A DNA stretch of 64,000 nt from Candidatus Binatus sp. (GCF_036567905.1 NZ_DATCTO010000069.1:27899-91898), one strand, 5' to 3'; shown: positions 3,871 to 16,729, counted from the stretch's first letter. The notes: generated by a model not told the origin, from the sequence alone. Translations and numbers: made by a program.

Positions 3871-5112
3871 CTATTCAAATTGTTCGTCGGAGGGTTTGAC
3901 GGCGCGGAACTGAATCAGCAGCGCGATGTCGTAAATCGTTTTGAGCACGCCCGCGCAAATCAGCGGCCATCCAAACGACGACTGATTCAGCATCGCGCCC
4001 GCCGGCAACGGCGCCATCGCCGCTGCCAGGCTGCGCGGCACATTGGTAACTGTCGCCGCGGCGGCGCGCTCCTCGGGCGGCACCACCGCCATCACATACG
4101 ACTGGCGCGCGGGCACGTCCATCTGCGAGGTCGAAAAGCGCAGCAGCAGAAATGTCATCGCCAGCCCCGGGGTCGGCATCAGCGCCGCGATGATCAGCAT
4201 GGCGTTCGACGGCAGATGGCTGAACACCATCGTGTTGATCCGGCCGAACCGCGCCGCAAGCGCCGACGAAATGAACTGTGAGAACGAGCCAAGCAGTCCG
4301 GCGGCGAAGAAAAACGTGCCCGCCGCTTGAACCGAGAGGTTGAACCGGCGAAACAGCCACAGCGCCAGAATTGACTGAATTACGAATCCGCCGCCGAGCG
4401 AGTCGAGACTGAACAGCGCCGAAAGCCGCAGCACGATTGCCCGCGACTTCGCCAGCGGCGCGGACTTGGCTGGTTGCCGCTCGACTTCGATGGCCGGGGA
4501 GAGACGCCGGTAAACCGCGAACGCAATCACCGCGATGATCGAGTACGCGACAAAGCCCGAGCGCAGCGCCGGCGCCAGCGCCCATCCATGGCGCGCCGCG
4601 AGTATCGCCGGCACGCCACTGGCGAGCGCGCCAAACGCACCAGCCGTCGCGCCCGCAACGTTGTACAGCGCGAACATCGCGGTCAGATCGCGAGGTTGTG
4701 CGGCCTCGGCCAACGCCGCTTGCTCGACCGGCAGAAACAGGCTGACGTCGCCGGCCGATGGATTCAGCGTGCCGACGACTGCCACCACGAACAGCAGCCA
4801 GAAACTGGTGGTGGTGGCGAATCCAATTCCCGTCGCCAGCATCAGCGCGCACGCCGCAAGCAGGACTCGGCGCCGGCCCAGCCGATCGGTGGCCAGTCCC
4901 ACCCATAGCGTCAGCGCCGCCGAGCCGAGCAGCGTGCCGAACACGATTGCGCCGACACGCAGTGGATTGAATCCGATCGCGGTCAGGTAGCTCGGCAACA
5001 ATATGCTGACTGCCCCGTCGGCAAGGCCGCGGAGCGCGCGTGTCGTCAGCAGCAGCTTGGCATCGGTCGTAGCGCTGCGCGGGAACCATCGATTGATCGG
5101 ACTCGCCATCAT
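3871..5112 (-). CDS. MFS transporter
   Basis: Multi-TM hydrophobic protein with the MFS loop motif (ATDRLGRRRVLL) and about 12 predicted helices. Start reassigned to the internal MMASPINRW ATG at 5112. Confidence 0.75.
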   Translation of the reverse strand: MMASPINRWFPRSATTDAKLLLTTRALRGLADGAVSILLPSYLTAIGFNPLRVGAIVFGTLLGSAALTLWVGLATDRLGRRRVLLAACALMLATGIGFATTTSFWLLFVVAVVGTLNPSAGDVSLFLPVEQAALAEAAQPRDLTAMFALYNVAGATAGAFGALASGVPAILAARHGWALAPALRSGFVAYSIIAVIAFAVYRRLSPAIEVERQPAKSAPLAKSRAIVLRLSALFSLDSLGGGFVIQSILALWLFRRFNLSVQAAGTFFFAAGLLGSFSQFISSALAARFGRINTMVFSHLPSNAMLIIAALMPTPGLAMTFLLLRFSTSQMDVPARQSYVMAVVPPEERAAAATVTNVPRSLAAAMAPLPAGAMLNQSSFGWPLICAGVLKTIYDIALLIQFRAVKPSDEQFE

Positions 5113-5414
5113 GTTGCAAGGCGCAGGTCTATAAGGCTCGCGCCGCCGAGGAAAGATAGCATAACGCGCTGTCCGCCGATTTGCTCGTTGTGGCATACTC
5201 GTGGCCTCTGCGCGCGTTTTGGAGGAGCAACTGTCCCCGGCCATTCGAAAGGAAAGCTTGATGCGCGTCGAAATCAGCGATGGCGTCGTATGGGGCGAGC
5301 TCGTGGATCAGCTGGTCGAAAAGAGACTCGTGCAACTGATCGCCAAGCCTAAAGGTGATTTGCGGTGAGGCCAAAGCTGGAGCCATCGGACCGTCACCGC
5401 GGCGCTTCGATTAG

Positions 5415-7364
5415 ATGAGCGGCATCGCGGTCCTCTATCAGTGGGACGGGGCTCCAGCCGACCGCTCGACTGTCGAGCGGATGATCGCCATCGTCCCCTA
5501 CCGCTCGGTTGACGGCTTCGGCGTGTGGGGCAACGGCCCGGTCGCGATTGGCCATGCAAAGCTCCAGACCACGCCCGAAGCTTCGGCCGAGACCAGCCCG
5601 TTCGTGGACGAAACCAGCGGACTCGTTCTATCGATGGACGGGCGAGTGGATAATCGCGACGAACTGACGGCGGAGTTGAATTCTCGAGGTCATCGTGTTC
5701 GCACCGGCACGGACGCCGAGATCGTGCTTCGCGCCTGGCAGTGTTGGGGTACGGAGGCGCCGGCAAGGCTGATCGGCGATTTCGCGCTCGCCTTATGGGA
5801 CCCATCGAAGCGGACGCTCTTTTGTGCCCGGGATCCTTTGGGAGTGAAAAGCTTCTATTACTTTAGTGGCCCAGGATTCTTTCTGTGCGCCTCGGAGCTT
5901 CATCAACTGTTCCAGGATCCGAGGATCGTACGAAGACCGAACGAGCCTGCTATAGCCGACATTCTGGTAAGAATGCCCGCAAATCGCCAGGAGACTCTCT
6001 TCGAGGGCATTGTCCGCCTCGAACCGGCGCATTATCTCAGCGTGAGCGCGCGGGGCGTGGAAAGCCGGCGCTATTACGATCTGGACCCCTCGCGGGAGAT
6101 CACCTATCGGACCGATGAGGAATACGGTTCGCACTTTCTCTCGCTGTTCAAGGAGGCGGTGCGATGCCGGCTTCGGAGCAACAAAGGAGTGGCGTCGGAC
6201 CTGAGTGGCGGGCTGGATTCGGGATCGATTGTCTGTTTGACCGAACAACTACGCCGCGACGGCGAGGTCCACGTCCCGAGTTTTGAGACCTTTTCAGTTC
6301 GCTTCGAGACCGGACCCGGCGCCGAGGCTGAGTACGTCGAAGAGGTCTTGCGCAAGTACCCTCATCGCCACACCTATCTTCCTTCAGGCGTGGCCCCGCT
6401 CACCGAACTTATTCGGCAAGTTGCGCACTACCTGGACCTGCCCGACTATCCCAACTCGGCGCTAGCCGATTACGCGCCACTCCTGGGCAAGCGCAATGAC
6501 CTGGGAGTCCGGCTGACCGGAGTGGGTGGCGACGAATGGCTTTCCGGAACGTCGCTGGTATATGCAGACTTGATCAGGCAGCTGCGGATTGCGGCGCTGT
6601 TGGAGACGCTGCGGATTAATCGAAACTTTTCCGGCGGGTACCCTGCCCATCCGGGCTACGCCAGGACTCTTTGGCGGTATGGAGTCTGGCCGCTCCTGCC
6701 CGAGAGCCTCAAGTCCGTGATCGATCGATGGCGGAGTCCTCCGCAGCCGACCGCTACGGTGTCGCGCGCGTTCGCGGCCAGGACGAGGCTATCGGAGCGG
6801 CTGTCCACGCGATTGCCGTTGCCCCGATGCCGCAGCTTTGCACAGCAGGCCGTGTACGGGGTTTACTCGTCCGGATTTCTCGCCTACGCGCTGGAGATCG
6901 ACGCACGCTGGACAGCGCGTTTTCGACTCGAGGGGCGCCAGCCGTTGCTGGACCGCCGCGTGCTGGAGTTTGCCTTCGCCATACCGGATAACCAACGTTT
7001 CAGGCCCGGCGTCAGCAAGTTCGTGATGCGCGAAGCGATGCGCGGAATCCTACCGGAGCGGGTGCGACTGCGGCCTGACAAGGCCGACCCGACCGAGGCA
7101 TACGCAACCGCGCTAATTGCGCTTGGTGGAGAGCGGCTGTTCGATCGCCTCAACGTCGTCGAAAACGGATGGGTGGACGGGGAAGCGGTTCTAAGCCTGT
7201 ACCGCTCGATGGCTGCCAAGTTTTCGCGCGGCGACCCCTCTTACATGAAGAATGTATGCGATCTATGGATGGTACTTGCGGTCGAACTGTGGCTCGATGT
7301 GGTGTTTCTCGGTATCAGCGACCCGCTCAAGCACGTGACCGAAGCCGAGCAAGCGGCTTTGTGA
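5415..7364 (+). CDS. asparagine synthetase (AsnB) family protein; candidate lasso-peptide macrolactam synthetase (C protein)
   Basis: N-terminal Ntn-glutaminase-like domain aligns with AsnB (DGRVDNRDEL, TDAEIVL, GDFALALWD, ARDPLGVKSFYY), but residue 2 is Ser rather than the catalytic Cys (MSGIAV, not MCGI). The PP-loop SGGLDSGSIV is present. A lasso-type precursor ORF follows immediately. Confidence 0.8.
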   Translation: MSGIAVLYQWDGAPADRSTVERMIAIVPYRSVDGFGVWGNGPVAIGHAKLQTTPEASAETSPFVDETSGLVLSMDGRVDNRDELTAELNSRGHRVRTGTDAEIVLRAWQCWGTEAPARLIGDFALALWDPSKRTLFCARDPLGVKSFYYFSGPGFFLCASELHQLFQDPRIVRRPNEPAIADILVRMPANRQETLFEGIVRLEPAHYLSVSARGVESRRYYDLDPSREITYRTDEEYGSHFLSLFKEAVRCRLRSNKGVASDLSGGLDSGSIVCLTEQLRRDGEVHVPSFETFSVRFETGPGAEAEYVEEVLRKYPHRHTYLPSGVAPLTELIRQVAHYLDLPDYPNSALADYAPLLGKRNDLGVRLTGVGGDEWLSGTSLVYADLIRQLRIAALLETLRINRNFSGGYPAHPGYARTLWRYGVWPLLPESLKSVIDRWRSPPQPTATVSRAFAARTRLSERLSTRLPLPRCRSFAQQAVYGVYSSGFLAYALEIDARWTARFRLEGRQPLLDRRVLEFAFAIPDNQRFRPGVSKFVMREAMRGILPERVRLRPDKADPTEAYATALIALGGERLFDRLNVVENGWVDGEAVLSLYRSMAAKFSRGDPSYMKNVCDLWMVLAVELWLDVVFLGISDPLKHVTEAEQAAL

Positions 7365-7388
7365 CGCATTAGTCACAATACCTGTTTC

Positions 7389-7418
7389 TTGACATACAAT
7401 TACGGGTCTTGCTATGTT
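7389..7418 (+). promoter_or_regulatory. candidate sigma70 promoter for the precursor peptide gene (TTGACA-N18-TATGTT)
   Basis: TTGACA lies at 7389-7394 and TATGTT at 7413-7418, about 27 nt upstream of the 7445 ATG. A GGGAGTGG RBS sits between them. The palindrome GTGAC-N6-GTCAC (7359-7374) overlaps the asnB-like stop just upstream. Confidence 0.4.
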
Positions 7419-7444
7419 GATTTCGCTGGATTCGGGAGTGGAAA

Positions 7445-7609
7445 ATGACCAAAAGTAGGGAACAACCGGCGAAAAAGAAAGAAGAGCGAGCAAAGCGACG
7501 CTATGCTCGTCCTCGTCTGATAAAATACGGCAGCGTTTCCAAGCTCACCGCCTCCGGCGGTTCCGCACTTCCGGTTGACGGCTCGAGCATCAGGAAGCCC
7601 GGGCCCTGA
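7445..7609 (+). CDS. lasso peptide precursor (A peptide), 54 aa: leader MTKSREQPAKKKEERAKRRYARPRLIKYGSVSKLTA, core SGGSALPVDGSSIRKPGP
   Basis: Hand-translated small ORF that is absent from the ORF track (<60 aa), with a GGGAGTGG RBS 5-6 nt upstream. The leader matches the YxxPxLxxxGxxxxxTx RRE-recognition motif exactly (Y-17, P-14, L-12, G-8, T-2). Core residue 1 is Ser and Asp is at core position 9, implying a 9-membered ring. It sits directly 3' of the AsnB-like gene. Confidence 0.65.
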   Translation: MTKSREQPAKKKEERAKRRYARPRLIKYGSVSKLTASGGSALPVDGSSIRKPGP

Positions 7610-7779
7610 CTCCCAGCTCCGTGGAAGTTCAGATCCGTAAAGAGCTTCCGGAGCCCCCGCATCATCAATGATGTGGTGATTCCGAAATGTAGTGAGTCCG
7701 ACAATTCCGGGAGTAGAGTAGGATTCGCCTTCAAGGGGTACCGCGCCGAGCGAGTCTCCACTGGGAACACGCTGAGCGG

Positions 7780-8784
7780 GTGCGCTGCGTAGCCGACTTG
7801 AGCAAACCGAGGATCCGAAACTTCCATAGCCAAGCCTACGGGCTGCAAATCGTTACCGACATCCCGCTTCCGGAGCTTCCGCCACTTCGGAGGTCGCCGA
7901 TCAGGTCGGCGGTTCGCGCGACTCTCGGCGGGCGCTTTCAGCGCATCGGGCTCAATCCCCAATGGTACCTGCGTTCGCGGCTTCCAGGCGGCCGGACTTG
8001 GCTGCGCTGCGGCAAGACCGCGGGCGGTTATGTACTTTCCTTTGCTGATATCGCCGACTTTGTCGTTGACGGCTCCGGAAGCCAGGTAGTCTGCTGCAAC
8101 GCCGGCAGCGACGTTAGTCTGGAGACCGTCCGTCATCTGCTGATCGACCAGGTGCTTGCGCTGATTGTAAACCTGCGCGGGCGCGACGCCCTGCACGCTA
8201 CCGCCGTCGCGACGCACAGGGGAGTTTGCGCATTCACGGGGCCTGCCGGGTCGGGCAAATCGACGCTCGCCGCGAGCTTTGTCCTGTCGGGCTATCCGCT
8301 GGTCTGCGATGATTGCCTGGCGGTTGCCGAGCGCAAGACAATTATGGCGCTCCCGGGGTATCCGGGCTTGCGGCTGTGGGACGATTCGATACGGGCGCTT
8401 GGCGCAAGTTCACGCAATCTGAAGCCGGTTGCGCACTATACGACGAAATCGCGCTGGCAAGACCATTCTCGACGCGCCGACTTCTGCTCGACGCCGCGCC
8501 GGCTCGCGCGCATCTATTTGCTCAAGCGCGCGCGCTCGAGCAAACACTCAGACCGCGTCCTCATCCAGGAACTCGCTCCCGCCGACGCGCTGATGGGCCT
8601 GGTCAAGGCGGCCTACCGGCTCGACATCACCGACCGCGCGATGCTGACGCGTCAGTTCCAGTTCCTCTCCCGCGTTGCCGAGCGCGTCGCGGTCAAACGC
8701 CTCATCGTGCCCAACGAATTTTCCGCACTCGCCGATGTAAGAGAAGCCGTCCTGCGCGACTTAAGCGAAGGACCGGCCGCTTGA
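7780..8784 (+). CDS. HPr kinase/phosphorylase-like (HprK-related) kinase
   Basis: Walker A GPAGSGKST followed about 12 aa later by LVCDDC, matching the HPrK/P G-x-S-G-x-GKS ... LVADD arrangement. Proteins of this type are known tailoring kinases in lasso clusters. The exact start is uncertain. Confidence 0.65.
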   Translation: MRCVADLSKPRIRNFHSQAYGLQIVTDIPLPELPPLRRSPIRSAVRATLGGRFQRIGLNPQWYLRSRLPGGRTWLRCGKTAGGYVLSFADIADFVVDGSGSQVVCCNAGSDVSLETVRHLLIDQVLALIVNLRGRDALHATAVATHRGVCAFTGPAGSGKSTLAASFVLSGYPLVCDDCLAVAERKTIMALPGYPGLRLWDDSIRALGASSRNLKPVAHYTTKSRWQDHSRRADFCSTPRRLARIYLLKRARSSKHSDRVLIQELAPADALMGLVKAAYRLDITDRAMLTRQFQFLSRVAERVAVKRLIVPNEFSALADVREAVLRDLSEGPAA

Positions 8785-8955
8785 CCACGACACCGCGCGG
8801 AGTGATTTGTGCGCGTTACCTTGCGCAAGACAGTGGCGCGGCGGACGACACATCCGCCTTAGAATTCACAGTGAACAGAGGATTGCCGCCTTCAATACGG
8901 TAATCGCTGGAGCCGAGGCGAGTCTTCGGTGGCGGCGATCAGAACCCTCGCCGGC

Positions 8956-8984
8956 CCTCCGCGGATTGCGTGAATCCGCGGAGG
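8956..8984. terminator. perfect 12-bp-stem hairpin between convergent genes (putative bidirectional terminator)
   Basis: CCTCCGCGGATT-gcgtg-AATCCGCGGAGG lies between the kinase gene stop (8784, + strand) and the beta-helix gene stop (9032, - strand). No clear U-tract. Confidence 0.4.
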
Positions 8985-9031
8985 TCACCGGCAAAACGAG
9001 GAAGAACCAAGCTTATACTTCACCGCACTTA

Positions 9032-10039
9032 TCAGGATCCCAGTCCTCCGATGCAGGCAGGACTTGACGCAGCGCCGGCGCTCGAAGTGCCAAAGCTATT
9101 GTTGTACCAGAGATTATTGCCGCAGGAAGCGGTCGCGTCGCGGAGATCGAAGGTGGTGGTGCCGTCGCCGTTGCCGGTGGCGTTAACGGTCGAGACCTGG
9201 TCCTGAGACGTCGATTCACTGGTATCCAGCAAAACCCCATTTCCGGTGTTGTCAGAGACTCCGTTTGGCGACGCGATAAACGCGTCAAGCACAGACGCAC
9301 TAGTATTTGCCTTGCCAAACGATGTACCGCCTAAGTGGACTGCGTTGCCCGCGTTATCTGCAGCGATGAATACGGTCGCACTAGGCTGGTCACCGTTTTG
9401 AATGAGCAATCCGTCACCGCCATTGTCAGTAGTTGAAAAGTCAAAAATCGTGCATTCATCGCTACATCCATTGAGGAAAATGCCGGTACCGGTGTTTCCC
9501 GATACAGAGAAATTACCCCATCTGTCTGTGCCCCCCATCATCAGCAGTCCGGTACCATTGGCCAAAGTAGTAGAAGGAGGAAAGGCTCCGATATTAACAT
9601 CGTCCCCTACGGTGTTGCCGCCGGAATCCGAGATCCCCGTCCGAAACCCTGTCACGAAGGCATTAAAGCCCTCCACCACGTTGTTGTCACCGGTGATCCT
9701 GATACCAGCCCCGGAAGTTACCGTGCTACCCGGACCGCTTATCGTGTAGCCATTGAGGAGCAAGGCGTCCCTGTCGCCCGTCAAATTAATACAGTTGGCG
9801 GTGGTGCTCGTCGTCGAGAGGTTACCCGTAAGATAGTAGATCGTGTTGGTCCCACCTAGATTCGACGTCGGGCAGTTGGGGCCGTTAACCGCCGTAGGAT
9901 CAGGTCCGGCTGCCCCCGCGATTGCACCGGTATGCTTGTGCTTGGCCCATGCAGTCCCCGGTGCCGCTAAGCCAACTCCGACCGCAAAAGCCAAAAGCGC
10001 TACGCTCAGGGTCTTGGTTATTCGATTCATCTCATCCAT
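9032..10039 (-). CDS. secreted parallel beta-helix repeat protein (Gly/Thr/Asn-rich)
   Basis: Signal peptide (TLSVALLAFAVGVGLAAPGTAWA) followed by repetitive G-x-N/G-T-G-I/L... turns typical of a right-handed beta-helix. A paralog lies at 50847..51728. Confidence 0.55.
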   Translation of the reverse strand: MDEMNRITKTLSVALLAFAVGVGLAAPGTAWAKHKHTGAIAGAAGPDPTAVNGPNCPTSNLGGTNTIYYLTGNLSTTSTTANCINLTGDRDALLLNGYTISGPGSTVTSGAGIRITGDNNVVEGFNAFVTGFRTGISDSGGNTVGDDVNIGAFPPSTTLANGTGLLMMGGTDRWGNFSVSGNTGTGIFLNGCSDECTIFDFSTTDNGGDGLLIQNGDQPSATVFIAADNAGNAVHLGGTSFGKANTSASVLDAFIASPNGVSDNTGNGVLLDTSESTSQDQVSTVNATGNGDGTTTFDLRDATASCGNNLWYNNSFGTSSAGAASSPACIGGLGS

Positions 10040-10287
10040 CCTTCTTTCGCTTTTGTTTCGTTGTCCTTACCGATACACAATTAACAGAACTGATTGCGCA
10101 ACACGTTCGTTTACGACGTGCTGTAGCAGAATTGACAACTTTACGAACGGCCGTGAATCATTCCATTTGGCCTTCTTTGTGTCAAGCGGTTTTATGACGC
10201 CCATTGACGGCTTTCTTATTCGATTTTAGCGGTTAGAAGTCGTACATTAGGCTGAGAGACGTATATCTCTACAATTTGTTATCCTAG

Positions 10288-11592
10288 TTGCCGGCAAGAC
10301 GGAAGCCGCTGTCGCCGTTTGATACACTTGTAATGCGCAGTTGGTCCACGCTTGCGCTTCGAGCTATTGTTCACAACTCAATGGCATCCGACGCTCTTCT
10401 CGACCTTGCCGATTTGTCGATCGAAGCGGCACTCGTGCTCTGCTGCGCGACAACTGCGGCTACGGCTGCGCGCACGGCGCTGGCGTCCGAGGTTGCGCCG
10501 CGCATACGCAGTTGGGACCGCGTCGTCGATATCGCCAAACGTCATGCGGTGCTCCCGCTGGTGCATCGCTATCTGAAACTCGAATGTCCGACCGCGGTTG
10601 CGCAAGAGGGGCTTGCGAAGCTGCGGACCCAGTGGCAGCTGATCATTCTCTACAACCGTCATCTGACCGCCGAACTTGTGCGCCTGATGGGCCTGCTGGA
10701 GGCGGCTGGAGTTGCGGCGGTCACCTTCAAGGGTCCGGTGCTTGCCGCGATGGCATACGGATCAATCGAACTTCGCCAGTTCAGCGATCTGGATATTCTG
10801 GTGCGCCAGACTGACCTGCCCCGGGTCGCCGAAATACTCACCGCCGAACGATATTTGTCGCCACATACCAGGCGCGAAGGCCTCGCGACCGGCTACTTTC
10901 AGGAGTACGAGGACGCCTTCATCGGACCCGACGGGCTGGGCGCGGTGGACGTTCATTGGAACATCACGCCGCGCTCGTTCCGTTTCGCCCCCGACGAGGA
11001 AGCCCTGTGGCGGCGCGCGCGCGGGGTCGATCTGGAGTTCGGCAAAGTGATGGCGATCGCGCCCGACGACCTGCTGCTATACATCTGCGTCCACGCCGCA
11101 AAGCATGGATGGATCACGCTCGGATCGATCTGCGACGTCGCCGAGACCATTCGGGCGCGTCCGGGAATCGATCTGATGGGGATGCTCGACGAGGCGACCG
11201 CGCTCGGGAGCCGGCGGATGTTCCTGACCGGCATCTGCCTGGCGCACGAGCTGGCCGGCGCGCCGGTCCCCGCCGAGCTTGTCACGATAGCTCGCGGCGA
11301 CCGCGCCGCCCGGGCGTTAGCGCGACGCGTCGCGGGGCGACTGTTCAAGGGAGCCACGCAGGGACGGGCAGACTTCGATCCGTGGGCGGTTCCGATCCGC
11401 TCGATCGAGGGCGCGCGCGCGCGAATGCGGTACATCGTCCGCCGAACGCTGGCGCCGACGATGGGCGACTATGAACTTATCGCGCTGCCGGCGGCGCTCT
11501 TTCCGCTCTACTGGGTGATTCGGCCGTTTCGGATGGCGGTGCAATACGGGCCGCGGCTGGTGCGCGGCTCTTCAAACAGTTCGAACGCGTGA
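10288..11592 (+). CDS. nucleotidyltransferase family protein (PF14907-like 'uncharacterised nucleotidyltransferase')
   Basis: The hG[GS]...D-h-D nucleotidyltransferase core is present: GPVLAAMAYGSIELRQFSDLDILV. Size of about 430 aa is consistent with the family, which recurs in kinase-containing lasso clusters. The start may be later, e.g. the MASDALL ATG. Confidence 0.55.
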   Translation: MPARRKPLSPFDTLVMRSWSTLALRAIVHNSMASDALLDLADLSIEAALVLCCATTAATAARTALASEVAPRIRSWDRVVDIAKRHAVLPLVHRYLKLECPTAVAQEGLAKLRTQWQLIILYNRHLTAELVRLMGLLEAAGVAAVTFKGPVLAAMAYGSIELRQFSDLDILVRQTDLPRVAEILTAERYLSPHTRREGLATGYFQEYEDAFIGPDGLGAVDVHWNITPRSFRFAPDEEALWRRARGVDLEFGKVMAIAPDDLLLYICVHAAKHGWITLGSICDVAETIRARPGIDLMGMLDEATALGSRRMFLTGICLAHELAGAPVPAELVTIARGDRAARALARRVAGRLFKGATQGRADFDPWAVPIRSIEGARARMRYIVRRTLAPTMGDYELIALPAALFPLYWVIRPFRMAVQYGPRLVRGSSNSSNA

Positions 11593-11626
11593 GCGTTCTC
11601 AATCTTTGATTTTTTAGCGGATTTGC

Positions 11627-11702
11627 TGGTGAGCCGGCCGGGACTTGAACCCGGGACCCTGTGATTAAAAGTCACATGCTCTACCGCCTGAGCTACCGGC
11701 TC
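11627..11702 (-). tRNA. tRNA-Lys (anticodon UUU), 76 nt with encoded CCA
   Basis: Reverse complement folds as a cloverleaf: acceptor GAGCCGG/CCGGCTC, D-arm TAGCTCAGGCGGTAGAGCA, anticodon stem TGTGA/TCACA with loop CTTTTAA, T-arm CCGGGTTCAAGTCCCGG, discriminator A, CCA. Confidence 0.85.
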
Positions 11703-12164
11703 ACCCGAGAGATTTCAATGCTTACAGGTAATTCGAAGCGTTGGAAACAGTCGCGACTTCACAACTCGGTTGCGCAACTCCGCCGCGCTTTGATTTCAAC
11801 TGCGCATGTTCTGCGAAAAACTCTATTTTTTCAGCTAGTTAAACCAGCTCGAAGCGTGGCGCGCCGTTGCCGGAAGAGCGACGGAAATGAGGCCGGTGAA
11901 GACGCGAGGCTATGTCATTTTCAATCAAATTTTCGATCCAACGCCATCGTGATTGCAGCGCGCTCATCACAGTGAAGGGCGCGATAGCAAAACACAAGGT
12001 GAGTGGCCGTTGCTCAAAATCGGCAAATTCCGCCCTGAACAGCTTGACATGCTACCCACTACTCGAATATATCCAAATCCTACAAATTAGTAGAGCGGGT
12101 TTAGTAAATTAGTGTGGGCAAATTAGTGTAGGTTGGAAGAATCAGCGCTCGAGAGGAACCAAGC

Positions 12165-13388
12165 ATGCGCCTACAAGAGTACTCGGCGAACGGATCGCCG
12201 GTCGCGGCTGCGAGGCATAAGCCTGGCGCCGAGCCGGCGGCCGCGACGTGCGAGTGGTTGAGCCTGGGGGAACTTGCGCATGGGTCGGAGCGGATTGGCG
12301 GGGCGGTGGTGCGGTCGGCGCACGCGCGCAAGATACTCAAAACCATTTCGCGCTTGAGTCCGTACAAGTCAACGGTCCTGATTCAGGGCGAATCGGGAAC
12401 CGGCAAGGAGTTGGTCGCGCGAGCGTTGCATACGCTGGGTGCGGTGCCAAGCGGCCCGTTCGTGACCTTCAACTGCTCCAACCTGGTCGAGTCGCTGGCA
12501 GAGTCGCAGCTTTTCGGTCATGTGCGCGGCGCTTTCACCGATGCGCGCGAGGATTCACTCGGCTATTTCCGCTCCGCCAACGGCGGAACTCTGTTTCTGG
12601 ACGAAGTCGGCGAGCTGCCGCTGCGCCTGCAGCCCAAGTTGCTGCGCGCGCTCGATACCCACGAGATTCAGCCGGTCGGTTCGTCACGCACCTACTCGGT
12701 TGATATTCGGCTGGTCGCGGCAAGCAATCGCGACCTGCACGCGATGGTGAAGGCAGGCCAATTCCGCGACGACCTCTACTACCGCCTTAACGCGGCGGCA
12801 ATCCTGGTTGCGCCGCTGCGCCAGCGGCGCGAGGCAATCCCGGCCTTCGTCGCCCATTTTATCGAGCACTTCAACCGCCTGTTCGGCAAGGACGTAAAGC
12901 TCGTTTCGCGGATCGCCGTGGACGCGCTGTGCGCAAATGACTGGCCCGGTAATGTCCGCGAGCTCGGCCATGCAATCGAGAGCGCGGTTCTGATGACCGA
13001 AAACGATCGTATCGATCTCGACGACCTGCCTTTGCGCCACGACGATTCGAATGGGGAAGCGCTGGACAAGCCGGTCGAGGCGGCGGTGCAAAACGGCGGG
13101 CTCAATCTCGAGGGCGGGCCCGATGGCGCCGGGATTGACTGCGCGAACGCGTCGAAGCGATGCTTCGAAATGGCGGGCTGGCCCTACTCGCTCGACGCGG
13201 TAATCCGCGAGGCCTCGAAGCTCGCGCTGATTCGCGCGCTGCAGGCGACCGAGGGCAATTGCCATCGCGCGGCCGAGATGCTGGGCGTATCGCGCTACAC
13301 GGTTTACCGGATGCTGAACCGGTTTGGCCTGGGCGAAGGACGCACCTACAGGACGCTGCGCAAGTCGATCGTCCGCCACGCGTCTTGA
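12165..13388 (+). CDS. sigma54-dependent Fis-family transcriptional activator (no receiver domain)
   Basis: AAA+ sigma54-interaction domain (LIQGESGTGKELVARALH, GAFTDA, ESQLFGH) and a C-terminal Fis-type HTH (AAEMLGVSRYTVYRMLNRFGL). The short N-terminus has no REC or GAF domain. Confidence 0.85.
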   Translation: MRLQEYSANGSPVAAARHKPGAEPAAATCEWLSLGELAHGSERIGGAVVRSAHARKILKTISRLSPYKSTVLIQGESGTGKELVARALHTLGAVPSGPFVTFNCSNLVESLAESQLFGHVRGAFTDAREDSLGYFRSANGGTLFLDEVGELPLRLQPKLLRALDTHEIQPVGSSRTYSVDIRLVAASNRDLHAMVKAGQFRDDLYYRLNAAAILVAPLRQRREAIPAFVAHFIEHFNRLFGKDVKLVSRIAVDALCANDWPGNVRELGHAIESAVLMTENDRIDLDDLPLRHDDSNGEALDKPVEAAVQNGGLNLEGGPDGAGIDCANASKRCFEMAGWPYSLDAVIREASKLALIRALQATEGNCHRAAEMLGVSRYTVYRMLNRFGLGEGRTYRTLRKSIVRHAS

Positions 13389-13521
13389 ATCTCGCCTGGA
13401 TGCTGGCGCCGTGGCCAGCGTAACCGGGCAGAGCTTCCGGGATTTCGAAATCATTTGCGTTGACGACGGCTTGACCGATCGAATCCGCGCAATCGTTGCA
13501 ACGCAGCAAGCCGCTTGTTCG

Positions 13522-14451
13522 CTAGCGGGCGGCGCGCGAGCGGCCGCTGAGCGCCCGCGCCACGGCGTCCGGCAGCAAAGTCCTGGCGAACCGCAGGTAA
13601 TTCTTGATTCGTAATGGATCGAAGCGGATTGCGCGCGCGAATGCGCGGCGTGCCAGCGTCCGATCGCCATCGCGGAGCGCGTGAAGCCCGATATAGCCGA
13701 GGATGCTGCGCGGCGCGCGACGACGGGCGAGCACGTGGTGATGCGCCGACACGCCGTAGCGCTCGCGCACCATCCGCTCGAAGATTGCGCCCGCCTCCTC
13801 CTGCCCTCCGCCGGGCTTGAGCGGCTCCGGGAACAGCGCGAAGCGCCATACCGCGAGCGGCTCCGCCAGATGGTGAAAGTTTCCGTATTCGCGCGCGCGG
13901 AGCCAAAGGTAAACGTCCTCGAACGCGATCAGATCCTCCGGGAATCCGCCCGCAAGCTCGAACACGCTTCGGCGCATCACGACTCCACTGGGCAGGATGG
14001 GCCACAACCGCTCGAGCATCTCGCCTACGGTTGGCGCGTGACTCGCGCCGGCCAGCGCGGCCATCTGCTCCCGCCCGGTGCTGTCGGCCAGGGCAAGATC
14101 CGTGTAAACGAGGCCGCAATCGGGGTCGCAGTCAAGCGTCTGGACCGTGCGCTCGAGCATCGCGGGCAGCCACCAATCGTCGGCGTCGAGGAACGCCAGG
14201 TACTCGCCCGACGATGCGCGCACGCCGGTGTTGCGGGCCGCGGAGGGCCCGCGCTTTGGCTCCTCGAGAATCTTTACCCGCCCGGCGAATCGCGCGAGAA
14301 CCTCGCGGCTGGAATCGATCGACCCATTATCGATCGCGATGATCTCGAAATCGGTGAAGGTCTGCGCGAGCACGCTCTCGATCGCGCCCGCCACCGTAGA
14401 GGCGCCATTGTAAACCGGGATGATTACCGAAACCCGCGGCATCCGGCACAC
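13522..14451 (-). CDS. GT2 family glycosyltransferase
   Basis: VSVIIPVYNG...IIAIDNGSID...LDADDWW matches the GT-A DxD-type family 2 signature. Confidence 0.8.
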   Translation of the reverse strand: MCRMPRVSVIIPVYNGASTVAGAIESVLAQTFTDFEIIAIDNGSIDSSREVLARFAGRVKILEEPKRGPSAARNTGVRASSGEYLAFLDADDWWLPAMLERTVQTLDCDPDCGLVYTDLALADSTGREQMAALAGASHAPTVGEMLERLWPILPSGVVMRRSVFELAGGFPEDLIAFEDVYLWLRAREYGNFHHLAEPLAVWRFALFPEPLKPGGGQEEAGAIFERMVRERYGVSAHHHVLARRRAPRSILGYIGLHALRDGDRTLARRAFARAIRFDPLRIKNYLRFARTLLPDAVARALSGRSRAAR

Positions 14452-14463
14452 CCAATAGGCGGG

Positions 14464-15369
14464 CTACGCGACCGCCGAACGGCCGGCGCCGGCGCCGTGA
14501 CGGGTGGGGCCGATTGCGGCGCGCGGGTGCTTCCACGCCGAGAGATCGCGCCCGGTCATCCGCTCCAGCGCCTCGACCTCGGGCCGAAAATGCTCGCGCA
14601 TCCGCGCTTCGGTCTCAGGGTCGAGACTCGGGAAAGCCTGGCCGCCGCCGAAGCATAAGCGCCATACTCCGGCGCGCTCGAGCGCGCTTAACGCGCGATG
14701 CCATCGATGCGTCCGCATCCAGTCGCGGGCGTTGCGCGCACTCTGCGCGAGGCGCCGGCTTCTCGGCGCGTGCGTGACCGCATTGACGCGCTCGGAGGCT
14801 CCGACCGTCGCGGCAACCTTGAACGGCGCGATCCCGATGAAGCCGCAGATGCGATCGAGGTAGCCCTGCGGGTCGGCTTCGAGATCGTCGTAGATGCATA
14901 CCAGCACATGCTCGGCGCCGAACATGCGCTGCCACTGTGCCAGATGATGCGCATAGCGGCTCGACTCGCGGATGATGGGGTTGCGCGCGACGGTCTCCTC
15001 GAAGCCCACCCGCGTCCACGCATCGCGGCGCATCACCCGGTACGACGAGTACGCGCGCTCGGTTGGGTCGCGAAACGAACAGATGATCCGGCATTCCGGG
15101 ACGTGCTGCGCTATCCGCTCGCGCGCCTCGGCCGAGCCGAAATAGTTGGGATCGATCTCTCCAACCGGCAGGCCGCAGCGGCAGTTACGGAAGTAATCGA
15201 GGTACCAGTCGATCCCCCTGTCGTAATGGCGAACGAAGAAGTCGGTCTCCTTGGCGCCTTCGGGAAGGCCAACGTGGCCGCGCAGCGCTTGGTCGAGCCA
15301 GGTGGTGCCCGTGCGCTGCGGTCCGACCGCGATGAAGTCCGGAAGCCGCGCGGTGCGCGTGGCGCTCAT
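14464..15369 (-). CDS. sulfotransferase family protein
   Basis: 5'-PSB loop FIAVGPQRTGTTWL and a 3'-PB-like FRDPTERAYSSY motif. Paralogous to the three genes at 16.8-19.6 kb. Confidence 0.75.
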   Translation of the reverse strand: MSATRTARLPDFIAVGPQRTGTTWLDQALRGHVGLPEGAKETDFFVRHYDRGIDWYLDYFRNCRCGLPVGEIDPNYFGSAEARERIAQHVPECRIICSFRDPTERAYSSYRVMRRDAWTRVGFEETVARNPIIRESSRYAHHLAQWQRMFGAEHVLVCIYDDLEADPQGYLDRICGFIGIAPFKVAATVGASERVNAVTHAPRSRRLAQSARNARDWMRTHRWHRALSALERAGVWRLCFGGGQAFPSLDPETEARMREHFRPEVEALERMTGRDLSAWKHPRAAIGPTRHGAGAGRSAVA

Positions 15370-15598
15370 GACGGGTCTCGAAGCGCACGCCGCGCAGCGG
15401 GCTCGGCCACTACATCCGCTTTTCCTATTTGAATCTCCAATTGCAACTCCCGGATACGCCCGACGCGCTCGGCTGCGCCGCGCGCCCCCCGGGCGTCCCT
15501 TGGCGTCGCCGTGCGGCTCCCGGCGGAAATCGCGTCGGGATGGGACTGCCGTCCTGCGAGGCGGTGGGCCTGCAGCGGCCGATAGTTCGTCACACTAA

Positions 15599-16729
15599 TC
15601 ACGCGCGTTTCCGCGAACAAATCGCATTTTCGTAAACCGCAAGATAACGCCCGGCGACGCGGGGCCAATCGTACTCGGCGCGCACGGTGGCGAGTCCGCG
15701 TTGTCCCATCTGGTTGCACTCGTCGGGGTGCGTGACCATCCAGCGCATCGCGGCGGCGAACTCCGGAGCCTCATTACGCTCCACCAGAAGACCTTCTTCT
15801 CCATCATGCACGACTTCCGGCACGCCTCCGCTGCGAGTGGCGATTACCGGTCGCCCGCACGCCATCGATTCCAGGAACACCAGGCCGAGGCCCTCTGGCC
15901 GGCGGCTCGCCATGACGAAGAATTGCGCGCCCTTGTACAGCTCCCAGAGCGTGGCGCGCGGGACAGCTCCGGTTAGTTCCACCCGTTTGTCGATTCCCAG
16001 CTCGCTCGCCAGTGCTGTCAGGCGCGCGCGATCAGCCCCCTCCCCCGCGATAACCAGGTCAAGCTCCGGGTGCGACGAGCAAATCGCGGCGAAGGCCTCG
16101 ATCACCACATCCAGCGCCTTGGATGAAAGATCAAGCCGCGACGCCGTCAGTATGTATGGGCGCGCGCGGCGAAAGGGCACACTTTGCGCCGCTCGGGCGC
16201 AATCCACTCCGCCGCGGATGACTTGCGCGCTGGCGATCGGCGGGTAAAACCTCGCCAGGCCGTTGCGCACCGATTCGGTCAGCACGCACAGGACGGTCGC
16301 CCCCGTGAGCGCTTTGAGCGCAGCCGGATAGGACCAATCGCCGCCATAACAATCCTGAAGAGTCTGCACCAGCGGCACGCACGCGAGTCTGGCCCCATCG
16401 GCAATCGCGGCTAATTTGTTCCACTGATTCACGTGCGAATTCACTACGTCGGGCCGCACGCGCCGGAGCAGCTCGGCCAATTCATGCCCGCGCCGCAATC
16501 GCAAAAGCCGCTCTGGATGGCGCAATGACGGCCGCTTGGTTGCGGGTATCCGCAAGCTGTGAACCGGCAGCCGGCTCAACGGCTCGCGCTCCGCTCCGGC
16601 AACGCCATAGTGGGTGCAGGCCACCTCGACGTGATGCCCTGCCAGCAGCATCTCGCTCGCGAGGTTATCCACGAACTCGGCAATTCCGCCGATGAAACGA
16701 AACTGCGTGCACAGAAGGAGGATTCGCAT
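15599..16729 (-). CDS. GT4 (GT-B fold) glycosyltransferase
   Basis: N-terminus MRILLLCTQFRFIGGIAEFV and a C-terminal E-x7-E-like region (FVMASRRPEGLGLVFLESMACGRPVIATRSGG), as in glycosyltransferase family 1/4. Confidence 0.8.
   Translation of the reverse strand: MRILLLCTQFRFIGGIAEFVDNLASEMLLAGHHVEVACTHYGVAGAEREPLSRLPVHSLRIPATKRPSLRHPERLLRLRRGHELAELLRRVRPDVVNSHVNQWNKLAAIADGARLACVPLVQTLQDCYGGDWSYPAALKALTGATVLCVLTESVRNGLARFYPPIASAQVIRGGVDCARAAQSVPFRRARPYILTASRLDLSSKALDVVIEAFAAICSSHPELDLVIAGEGADRARLTALASELGIDKRVELTGAVPRATLWELYKGAQFFVMASRRPEGLGLVFLESMACGRPVIATRSGGVPEVVHDGEEGLLVERNEAPEFAAAMRWMVTHPDECNQMGQRGLATVRAEYDWPRVAGRYLAVYENAICSRKRA

Follow-up and report, generated by a model that had tools for sequence, protein, structure and literature searches.

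An open reading frame of 54 codons lies behind a gene for an asparagine-synthetase-like protein in the genome of a Candidatus Binatus sp., and a reading of the sequence alone had proposed it as the precursor gene of a lasso peptide. Does this frame encode such a precursor, and can the locus in which it lies turn the precursor into a lasso peptide? The window referred to below is the whole stretch of DNA that was analyzed, 64,000 nucleotides in length, and the features that are discussed are collected in Table 1. We assign a probability of roughly 0.8 to the reading that the precursor gene A is a genuine class-II-type lasso gene in a locus that is conserved in the Binataceae, and that this genome lacks the leader-handling proteins B1 and B2 in cis. 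What is new here is the incompleteness of the locus, with a deletion in B1 and no B2, together with a mismatch to the rule that precursors from comparable clusters end in Ser.

Table 1. Features of the lasso locus and its surroundings, with positions counted from the first letter of the window.
Feature	Coordinates	Strand	Size	Remarks
PqqD-type RRE (B1) remnant	5261-5368	+	35 aa	MRVEISDGVVWGELVDQLVEKRLVQLIAKPKGDLR; 177-bp in-frame deletion
Lasso cyclase C, Asn-synthase-like macrolactam synthetase	5415-7364	+	649 aa	Intact; PF00733, GATase_7
Sigma-70-type promoter TTGACA-N18-(TG)-TATGTT	7389-7418	+		In the C-A intergenic gap; 10/12 consensus positions
RBS GGGAG	7434-7438	+		6 nt before the ATG of A; read off the sequence
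Precursor gene A	7445-7609	+	54 aa	ATG start; translation MTKSREQPAKKKEERAKRRYARPRLIKYGSVSKLTASGGSALPVDGSSIRKPGP
Leader region	7445-7552	+	36 codons	Y-17, P-14, L-12, G-8, T-2; best-conserved stretch of the family alignment
Overlapping ORF	7501-8217	-	238 aa	No family match; not among the ORFs with third-position GC above 0.68
Predicted core	7553-7609	+	18 aa plus stop codon	SGGSALPVDGSSIRKPGP; predicted (inferred) isopeptide bond S1-D9
Two stem-loops	7616-7654 and 7657-7676	+		Between the stop codon of A and the kinase gene; no T-run
HPr-kinase-related P-loop kinase K	7780-8784	+	334 aa	Weak TIGR04352 HprK_rel_A and PF07475 matches
Secreted Gly/Thr/Asn-rich protein	9032-10039	-	335 aa	Fixed place between K and NT in Binataceae
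PF14907 nucleotidyltransferase NT	10288-11592	+	434 aa	PF14907 E 1.6e-54
Sigma-54-dependent activator	12165-13388	+		After NT
GT2, sulfotransferase, and GT4 genes in a row	13522-16729	-		Sulfotransferase PF13469/PF00685
Sulfotransferase	14464-15369	-		7 kb off, among the GT2/GT4 genes

The frame exists on the plus strand as the sequence-only reading had described it, with an identical translation, and it begins 80 bp past the stop codon of C, the Asn-synthase-like protein behind which it had been placed. The best NCBIfam match of C is the lasso isopeptide cyclase family (lass_lactam_cya), with a score of 436.8 bits that lies under the cut-off of 525. The claimed leader motif YxxPxLxxxGxxxxxTx is present as well: Y20, P23, L25, G29, and T35 fall at positions -17, -14, -12, -8, and -2, a numbering that assumes cleavage after A36. 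When the pattern Y..P.L...G.....T. was searched in the six-frame translation of the window a single match was obtained, which is this frame, versus an expectation of 0.015 per window that was determined from 200 Markov-resampled sequences. NCBIfam NF033521 (lasso_leader_L3) matches residues 20-39 of the precursor with 20.7 bits (curated cut-off of 19), a model that spans only the 20-residue leader motif and is silent on the core, the ring, and the product. Additionally, a family HMM for which only the relatives were used matched the frame at E = 7e-25, and across the six frames of the 64-kb window it matched nothing else, so that no further precursor gene was found.

Related loci were sampled by a cyclase scan of species-representative genomes. 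This resulted in 31 loci, about twenty of which belong to the Binataceae and the remainder to Blastocatellia, Vicinamibacterales, other Acidobacteriota, Polyangiaceae, Gammaproteobacteria, and others. The sequence-only reading had held that homologous small frames should occur beside orthologous AsnB-like genes, and 26 of the 31 loci do have a small precursor homologue that adjoins the cyclase; three further homologues were found in metagenomes. The leader is the conserved part of these precursors, with the consensus K(K/R)xYxxPxLxEYGxxxKLT(A/S/Q), and its motif is near-identical between cluster types, while the core is variable. In comparisons with relatives, dN/dS values were 0.18-0.36 for the precursor frame and 0.19-0.27 for the cyclase, which indicates purifying selection.

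The gene also has expression signals of its own, as had been claimed. The promoter hexamers are TTGACA (7389-7394) and TATGTT (7413-7418), separated by an 18-nt spacer and with a TG before the -10 element, and this was the top sigma-70-like site in a scan of positions 5000-9200. The promoter hexamers and purine-rich equivalents of the RBS are kept in the related loci L001 (the closest relative), L006, and L003 at synonymous divergences of up to about 1. Taken with the NF033521 and family HMM matches, the reading of the frame as a lasso precursor is supported because its homologues adjoin the cyclase, the leader is kept, the core is variable, the coding sequence is constrained, and the promoter and RBS are conserved; we consider it very probable that the frame is a lasso-family precursor gene. 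Its description as unannotated was true only of the ORF track with a 60-aa cut-off on which the sequence-only reading was based: an identical protein is already found in NCBI and UniRef as WP_414645328.1, 'lasso RiPP family leader peptide-containing protein [Candidatus Binatus sp.]'. The precursor is thus an ordinary addition to a known RiPP class, as neither the class of gene nor its motif is new and the protein had been annotated automatically before.

That the frame is open by chance or encodes a small protein unrelated to lasso peptides is highly improbable, for although it is short, has no Pfam match, and overlaps a 238-aa frame on the minus strand, it is matched by NF033521 and the family HMM, carries a motif with an expected count far below the one observed, is conserved across phyla with dN/dS below 0.4, and has a fixed place by C, and the minus-strand frame is itself without a family match and outside the list of ORFs with high third-position GC.

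The predicted core fits the rule of a small first residue and an Asp or Glu at positions 7-9, by virtue of S1 and D9. The first residue of the family cores is S or G, or Ile in one subclade, and wherever a precursor has a recognizable core, Asp or Glu occupies its position 8 or 9. The cores nearest to that of the window are from L001, L003, L006, and three metagenome proteins. They keep S1, G2, G3, S4, P7, D9, and G10 as well as I/L13, R/K14, K15, P16, and G17, with variation at positions 5, 6, 8, 11, 12, and 18. The S1-D9 ring is a prediction, as is the role of I13, R14, and K15 as plugs, and the mature lasso (core minus 18 Da) would have a monoisotopic mass of 1662.87 Da.

The predicted core can be compared with class II proteobacterial lasso peptides that have 9-membered rings or a first residue other than Gly, namely capistruin and caulonodins IV-VII. 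It shares with them the X1-D9 ring that is predicted for it, a length of approximately 18 residues, the lack of disulfides, and basic or bulky residues 4-6 positions past the ring. The caulonodins also provide a precedent for Ser in the first position. These peptides and that of the window have no similarity in core sequence, however, and differ in gene order and in accessory enzymes, and the topology of the window peptide is a predicted one. We found no paper on lasso peptides from Binatota in the literature.

Ser residues are located at positions 1, 4, 11, and 12 of the core. The sequence-only reading had named S11 and S12 as the only Ser targets for a modifying enzyme, which overlooked S1 and S4, but it was right that the peptide ends in Pro (...RKPGP) rather than Ser. 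A final Ser is lacking from all precursors of the family, many of which have Cys-Leu at the C-terminus. The Cys-Leu ends (...TCL, ...MNCL, ...PCL) were observed in L002, L009, L015, L016, L017, L021, L023, L024, and L025, and the subclade of the window precursor ends in ...RKPG(P/A/K) instead.

The order of the genes in the Binataceae loci is B1 - C - A - K - (secreted protein) - NT. Synteny is kept for the kinase K in 27 of the 31 loci and for NT in most of the Binataceae loci. K is only distantly HPrK-like, as its best NCBIfam match, TIGR04352 HprK_rel_A, reaches 37 bits where the cut-off is 200, and a search of the PDB sequences with K returned only marginal P-loop matches. What defines the neighborhood of TIGR04352 ('HprK-related kinase A') is that genes for PqqD-like proteins and nucleotidyltransferases occur together with it. 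Residues H139, G157, G159, K160, S161, T162, D177, D178, and R198 of K are invariant in nine diverse members of its family. A His-Lys-Asp-Asp set has been reported to be essential in lasso kinases (PMC9266682), and it is kept in the window kinase as H139, K160, D177, and D178.

Paeninodin-type clusters (PadeA/PadeK, ThcoK, SyanK) are split-type clusters with an HPr-kinase homologue, as is the window locus, from which B1 and B2 are missing in comparison. In precursors from kinase-type clusters the C-terminal Ser is the site of phosphorylation and has been described as extremely conserved (PMC9266682). The paeninodin-type precursors end in Ser, whereas the window peptide ends in Pro. Because Ser is the last residue of none of the family precursors, though every locus has an HPr-kinase-like enzyme, the paeninodin-type model of C-terminal phosphorylation does not transfer to the window family, as judged from the precursor sequences. 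By its predicted proteins, the window locus resembles a kinase-type lasso cluster yet fails a defining feature of such clusters, the C-terminal Ser.

A second comparison is provided by the pseudomycoidin cluster of Bacillus pseudomycoides, which encodes a kinase, PsmK, and a nucleotidyltransferase, PsmN; the likeness to these two proteins is by enzyme type, and we take PsmN to be a member of PF14907. The same types of accessory enzymes are located by C and A in the window (PMC8498205). An enzyme of the PF14907 type is associated with lasso clusters, and the nucleotidyltransferase of the kinase-type cluster glycosylates phospho-pseudomycoidin (PMC8498205). Pseudomycoidin is phosphoglycosylated on its C-terminal Ser, a residue that the window peptide does not have, and the two organisms belong to Firmicutes and Binatota, respectively.

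In the window, the B1 gene has been reduced to a remnant. Residues 12-70 of the 94-aa protein of the relatives, and with them about 80% of the PqqD domain, are lost through the deletion, which appears as a single clean gap of 177 columns in a DNA alignment with L001, L004, L011, and L013. The gene for full-length B1 lies directly upstream of the cyclase in the relatives, and its product matches PF05402 (PqqD) at E 1e-17 to 1e-18; the 35-aa remnant has no family match, PF05402 included, and scores only 12 bits with a B1 HMM. B1 is intact in the 95%-identical sister locus L001 and also in L003, L004, and others. The deletion is unique to this genome, the assembly of which is metagenome-derived, among 14 close relatives. 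Since every other type-1 locus that was sampled upstream of C retains a PqqD gene beside C, it is suggested that B1 matters in cis and that its loss in the window is exceptional.

The 64 kb were searched for leader-handling genes by tblastn with 18 B1/B2 queries and four closer B2 queries, and with HMMs on six-frame fragments of at least 20 aa. Apart from the remnant, these searches of the 64 kb detected no B1, and no leader peptidase B2 (PF13471) was found there either, with the best match at 8.6 bits and E 0.16 (eight queries by tblastn, and HMM). A B2 domain fused to NT or K was also considered and was rejected, as neither protein gave a Pfam or HMM signal for it. B2 adjoins B1 and C in L003, L006, L010, L012, L015, L016, L021, L026, L028, L029, and L031, where it was confirmed as PF13471 with Pfam for L003 and L021 and assigned by tblastn homology for the others. 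It is absent within 10 kb from the window, L001, L002, L004, L005, L007-L009, L011, L013, L014, L017, and L019. These twelve B2-less type-1 loci besides the window mostly have intact C, A, and K genes, with breaks in L007, L017, and L019. B2 seems to be dispensable in cis for the type-1 subfamily because most of the twelve keep intact genes under purifying selection.

A further gene, which encodes a 380-aa PRMT-like methyltransferase, is located between C and A in most of the relatives and is absent from the window. In type-1 loci this gene and B2 are mutually exclusive, as read at about 9100-13200 in each locus. B2 occurs without the methyltransferase in L003, L006, L010, and L012, and the methyltransferase without B2 in L002, L004, L005, L008, L009, L014, L017, and L019; neither gene is found in the window, L001, or L011, and both are found in the type-2 loci L015, L016, and L021. 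The possibility that a C-terminal RRE of the methyltransferase replaces B1 was rejected, as hhalign of its tail against a PqqD alignment gave a probability of 0.2% and the window does not have the gene. In L006, the B2 gene (9430-9924) ends in a tail (...EPDELRHDLDNL...) that is homologous to the C-terminal part of B1, which suggests that a deletion fused B2 to a B1 remnant, and a separate minus-strand PqqD gene is found near B2.

As judged from its gene content, the window locus cannot carry out the leader steps itself, with B1 a remnant and B2 absent from the 64 kb. Maturation of the peptide must therefore need helpers that are encoded elsewhere, or else it is blocked. The co-expression of A and C with a B1/B2 pair that the sequence-only reading had proposed sensed the need for a supplied pair, but missed both the absence of B2 and the internal deletion of B1. 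The peptide would not be producible by cloning the window locus alone; B1 could be taken from a relative (L001) and B2 from L003 or L006.

By analogy with the family and with established lasso biochemistry, the PqqD-type RRE (B1) would bind the YxxPxLxxxG part of the leader and the transglutaminase-like Cys protease (B2) would cleave after Thr-Ala. The AsnB-like cyclase would then adenylate Asp9 and join it to the amine of Ser1, giving a 9-membered ring threaded by the tail GSSIRKPGP, in which I13, R14, and K15 are the plug candidates. The HPr-kinase-like enzyme and the PF14907 nucleotidyltransferase would act as tailoring enzymes, and their target could not be a C-terminal Ser. In this strain the mature lasso would be made only if B1 and B2 were supplied from elsewhere in the genome, and otherwise the precursor would stay unprocessed. 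That the strain actually matures a lasso peptide seems to us somewhat doubtful. Against the main reading as a whole, C scores under the lasso cyclase cut-off, two defining components of the cluster are missing in cis, B2 is likewise not found within 10 kb in the twelve other relatives, and the B1 deletion comes from a metagenome-derived assembly.

Three explanations can be given for a conserved precursor beside an incomplete set of helpers, and in our order of preference they are a recently crippled locus, B1 and B2 proteins that act in trans, and a route that is independent of the B proteins. The first, which we hold tentatively and at somewhat less than even odds, is that the locus is a relic on its way to decay, in which transcription and translation of the precursor are not followed by any processing. 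The B1 deletion, which no close relative shares and which takes most of the PqqD domain, is consistent with this, as is the lack of both B2 and the methyltransferase. Other members of the family look eroded too, namely L007, L019, L017, and L028, with frameshifts in L007, L017, and L028, but breaks of this kind in long-read MAGs may be sequencing or indel errors. Against a relic, the C, A, K, and NT genes of the window are free of frameshifts and stop codons. Furthermore, when the substitutions in C were polarized with outgroups, 30 synonymous and 11 non-synonymous changes were assigned to the window branch and 23 and 18 to the L001 branch, and no relaxation of selection was seen on the window branch after the loss of B1. 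With so strong a synonymous bias on this branch, the deletion must be very recent if the locus is a relic.

Among the eroded members, L007 has a methyltransferase remnant (14600-15000), split kinase and NT genes, and a read-through precursor. In L019 the precursor is cut off right after the leader (13317-13442), and the cyclase is broken in both L017 and L019 (10001-11950).

The second explanation is that the locus is fully productive, in that a stand-alone B2 and another PqqD paralogue from elsewhere in the genome act in trans on the conserved leader and the cis copies are dispensable. We regard this as plausible, at about the odds of one in three expressed loosely, and several observations speak for it. 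Selection on the window branch is not relaxed, and between the window and L001, two genomes that are both without B2, dN/dS for C and A is 0.19-0.25. The twelve other type-1 loci without B2 within 10 kb mostly keep C, A, and K intact. Additional PqqD paralogues occur in relatives: L016 and L021 have two, L006, L010, and L012 have one that is encoded on the minus strand, and L002 has a second copy. The leader motif is also near-identical across cluster types. On the other hand, no second cyclase locus was recovered from the Binataceae genomes that bear a type-1 locus, and the PqqD gene that stands by C in every other type-1 locus sampled upstream of C suggests that B1 matters in cis.

The third explanation is that the B proteins are not needed, in that a housekeeping protease would remove the leader and the cyclase would take the free core. 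The pseudomycoidin cyclase yielded the peptide in vivo when given only the core and no leader peptidase (PMC6993621), and this peptidase independence is a possible precedent for the loci without B2. The window shares the accessory type of that cluster, with K and a PF14907 nucleotidyltransferase, and many relatives are without B2. To obtain pseudomycoidin in this way, however, a core without its leader had to be expressed. In the present family no part of the peptide is better conserved than the RRE-binding motif of the leader, which argues for RRE-dependent processing, and B1 is kept in nearly all of the relatives. We therefore consider a B-independent route quite improbable.

A broader proposal, which we think rather unlikely, is that this subfamily of Binatota and Acidobacteriota follows a non-canonical lasso route in which the leader peptidase is located outside the cluster or is unneeded. 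The site modified by the kinase and the nucleotidyltransferase would not be a C-terminal Ser but might be, for instance, the conserved S-G-G-S/T residues of the ring, and in sister loci the PRMT-like methyltransferase alternates with B2. The window locus, which is without B1 and B2 although C, A, K, and NT show no decay, would be a natural minimal version of the route.

As a discovery, the gene is modest. It adds a predicted lasso peptide from Binatota, and its family has a kinase and a nucleotidyltransferase with a substrate rule that is unlike that of the characterized ones. Across about 20 sister loci, the pattern in which B1, B2, and the methyltransferase are present or absent amounts to a natural experiment on the need for individual lasso genes in cis.

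Several neighboring features were examined for a connection to the locus. The sulfotransferase had been suggested as a possible modifier of Ser, a role for which it was rejected here: it is 7 kb away, sits among the GT2 and GT4 glycosyltransferase genes, and is linked to the locus only in L001. The row of genes to which it belongs is probably a polysaccharide locus rather than a set of lasso tailoring genes. A sigma-54 activator follows NT in the window, L001, L004, L005, L007, L011, and L014. A sigma-54 promoter that would tie this activator to the cluster was looked for and rejected, as there was no site in the cluster and the matches elsewhere were at chance level.

The secreted 335-aa protein has a signal-peptide-like N-terminus and no match in Pfam, NCBIfam, or PDB. 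Its identity is 87% in L001 and 28-55% elsewhere, versus 62-90% for the neighboring genes, so that it evolves far more rapidly than they do, and its membership in the pathway is uncertain.

The stem-loops that follow A have a minimum free energy of -35.9 kcal/mol (z = -3.3 versus shuffles) and were not called as terminators in a scan for intrinsic terminators. They may serve in attenuation or transcript stabilization, and might govern how abundant the precursor transcript is relative to the enzyme transcripts. In L001, the counterpart of this stem-loop segment contains a 19-nt duplication.
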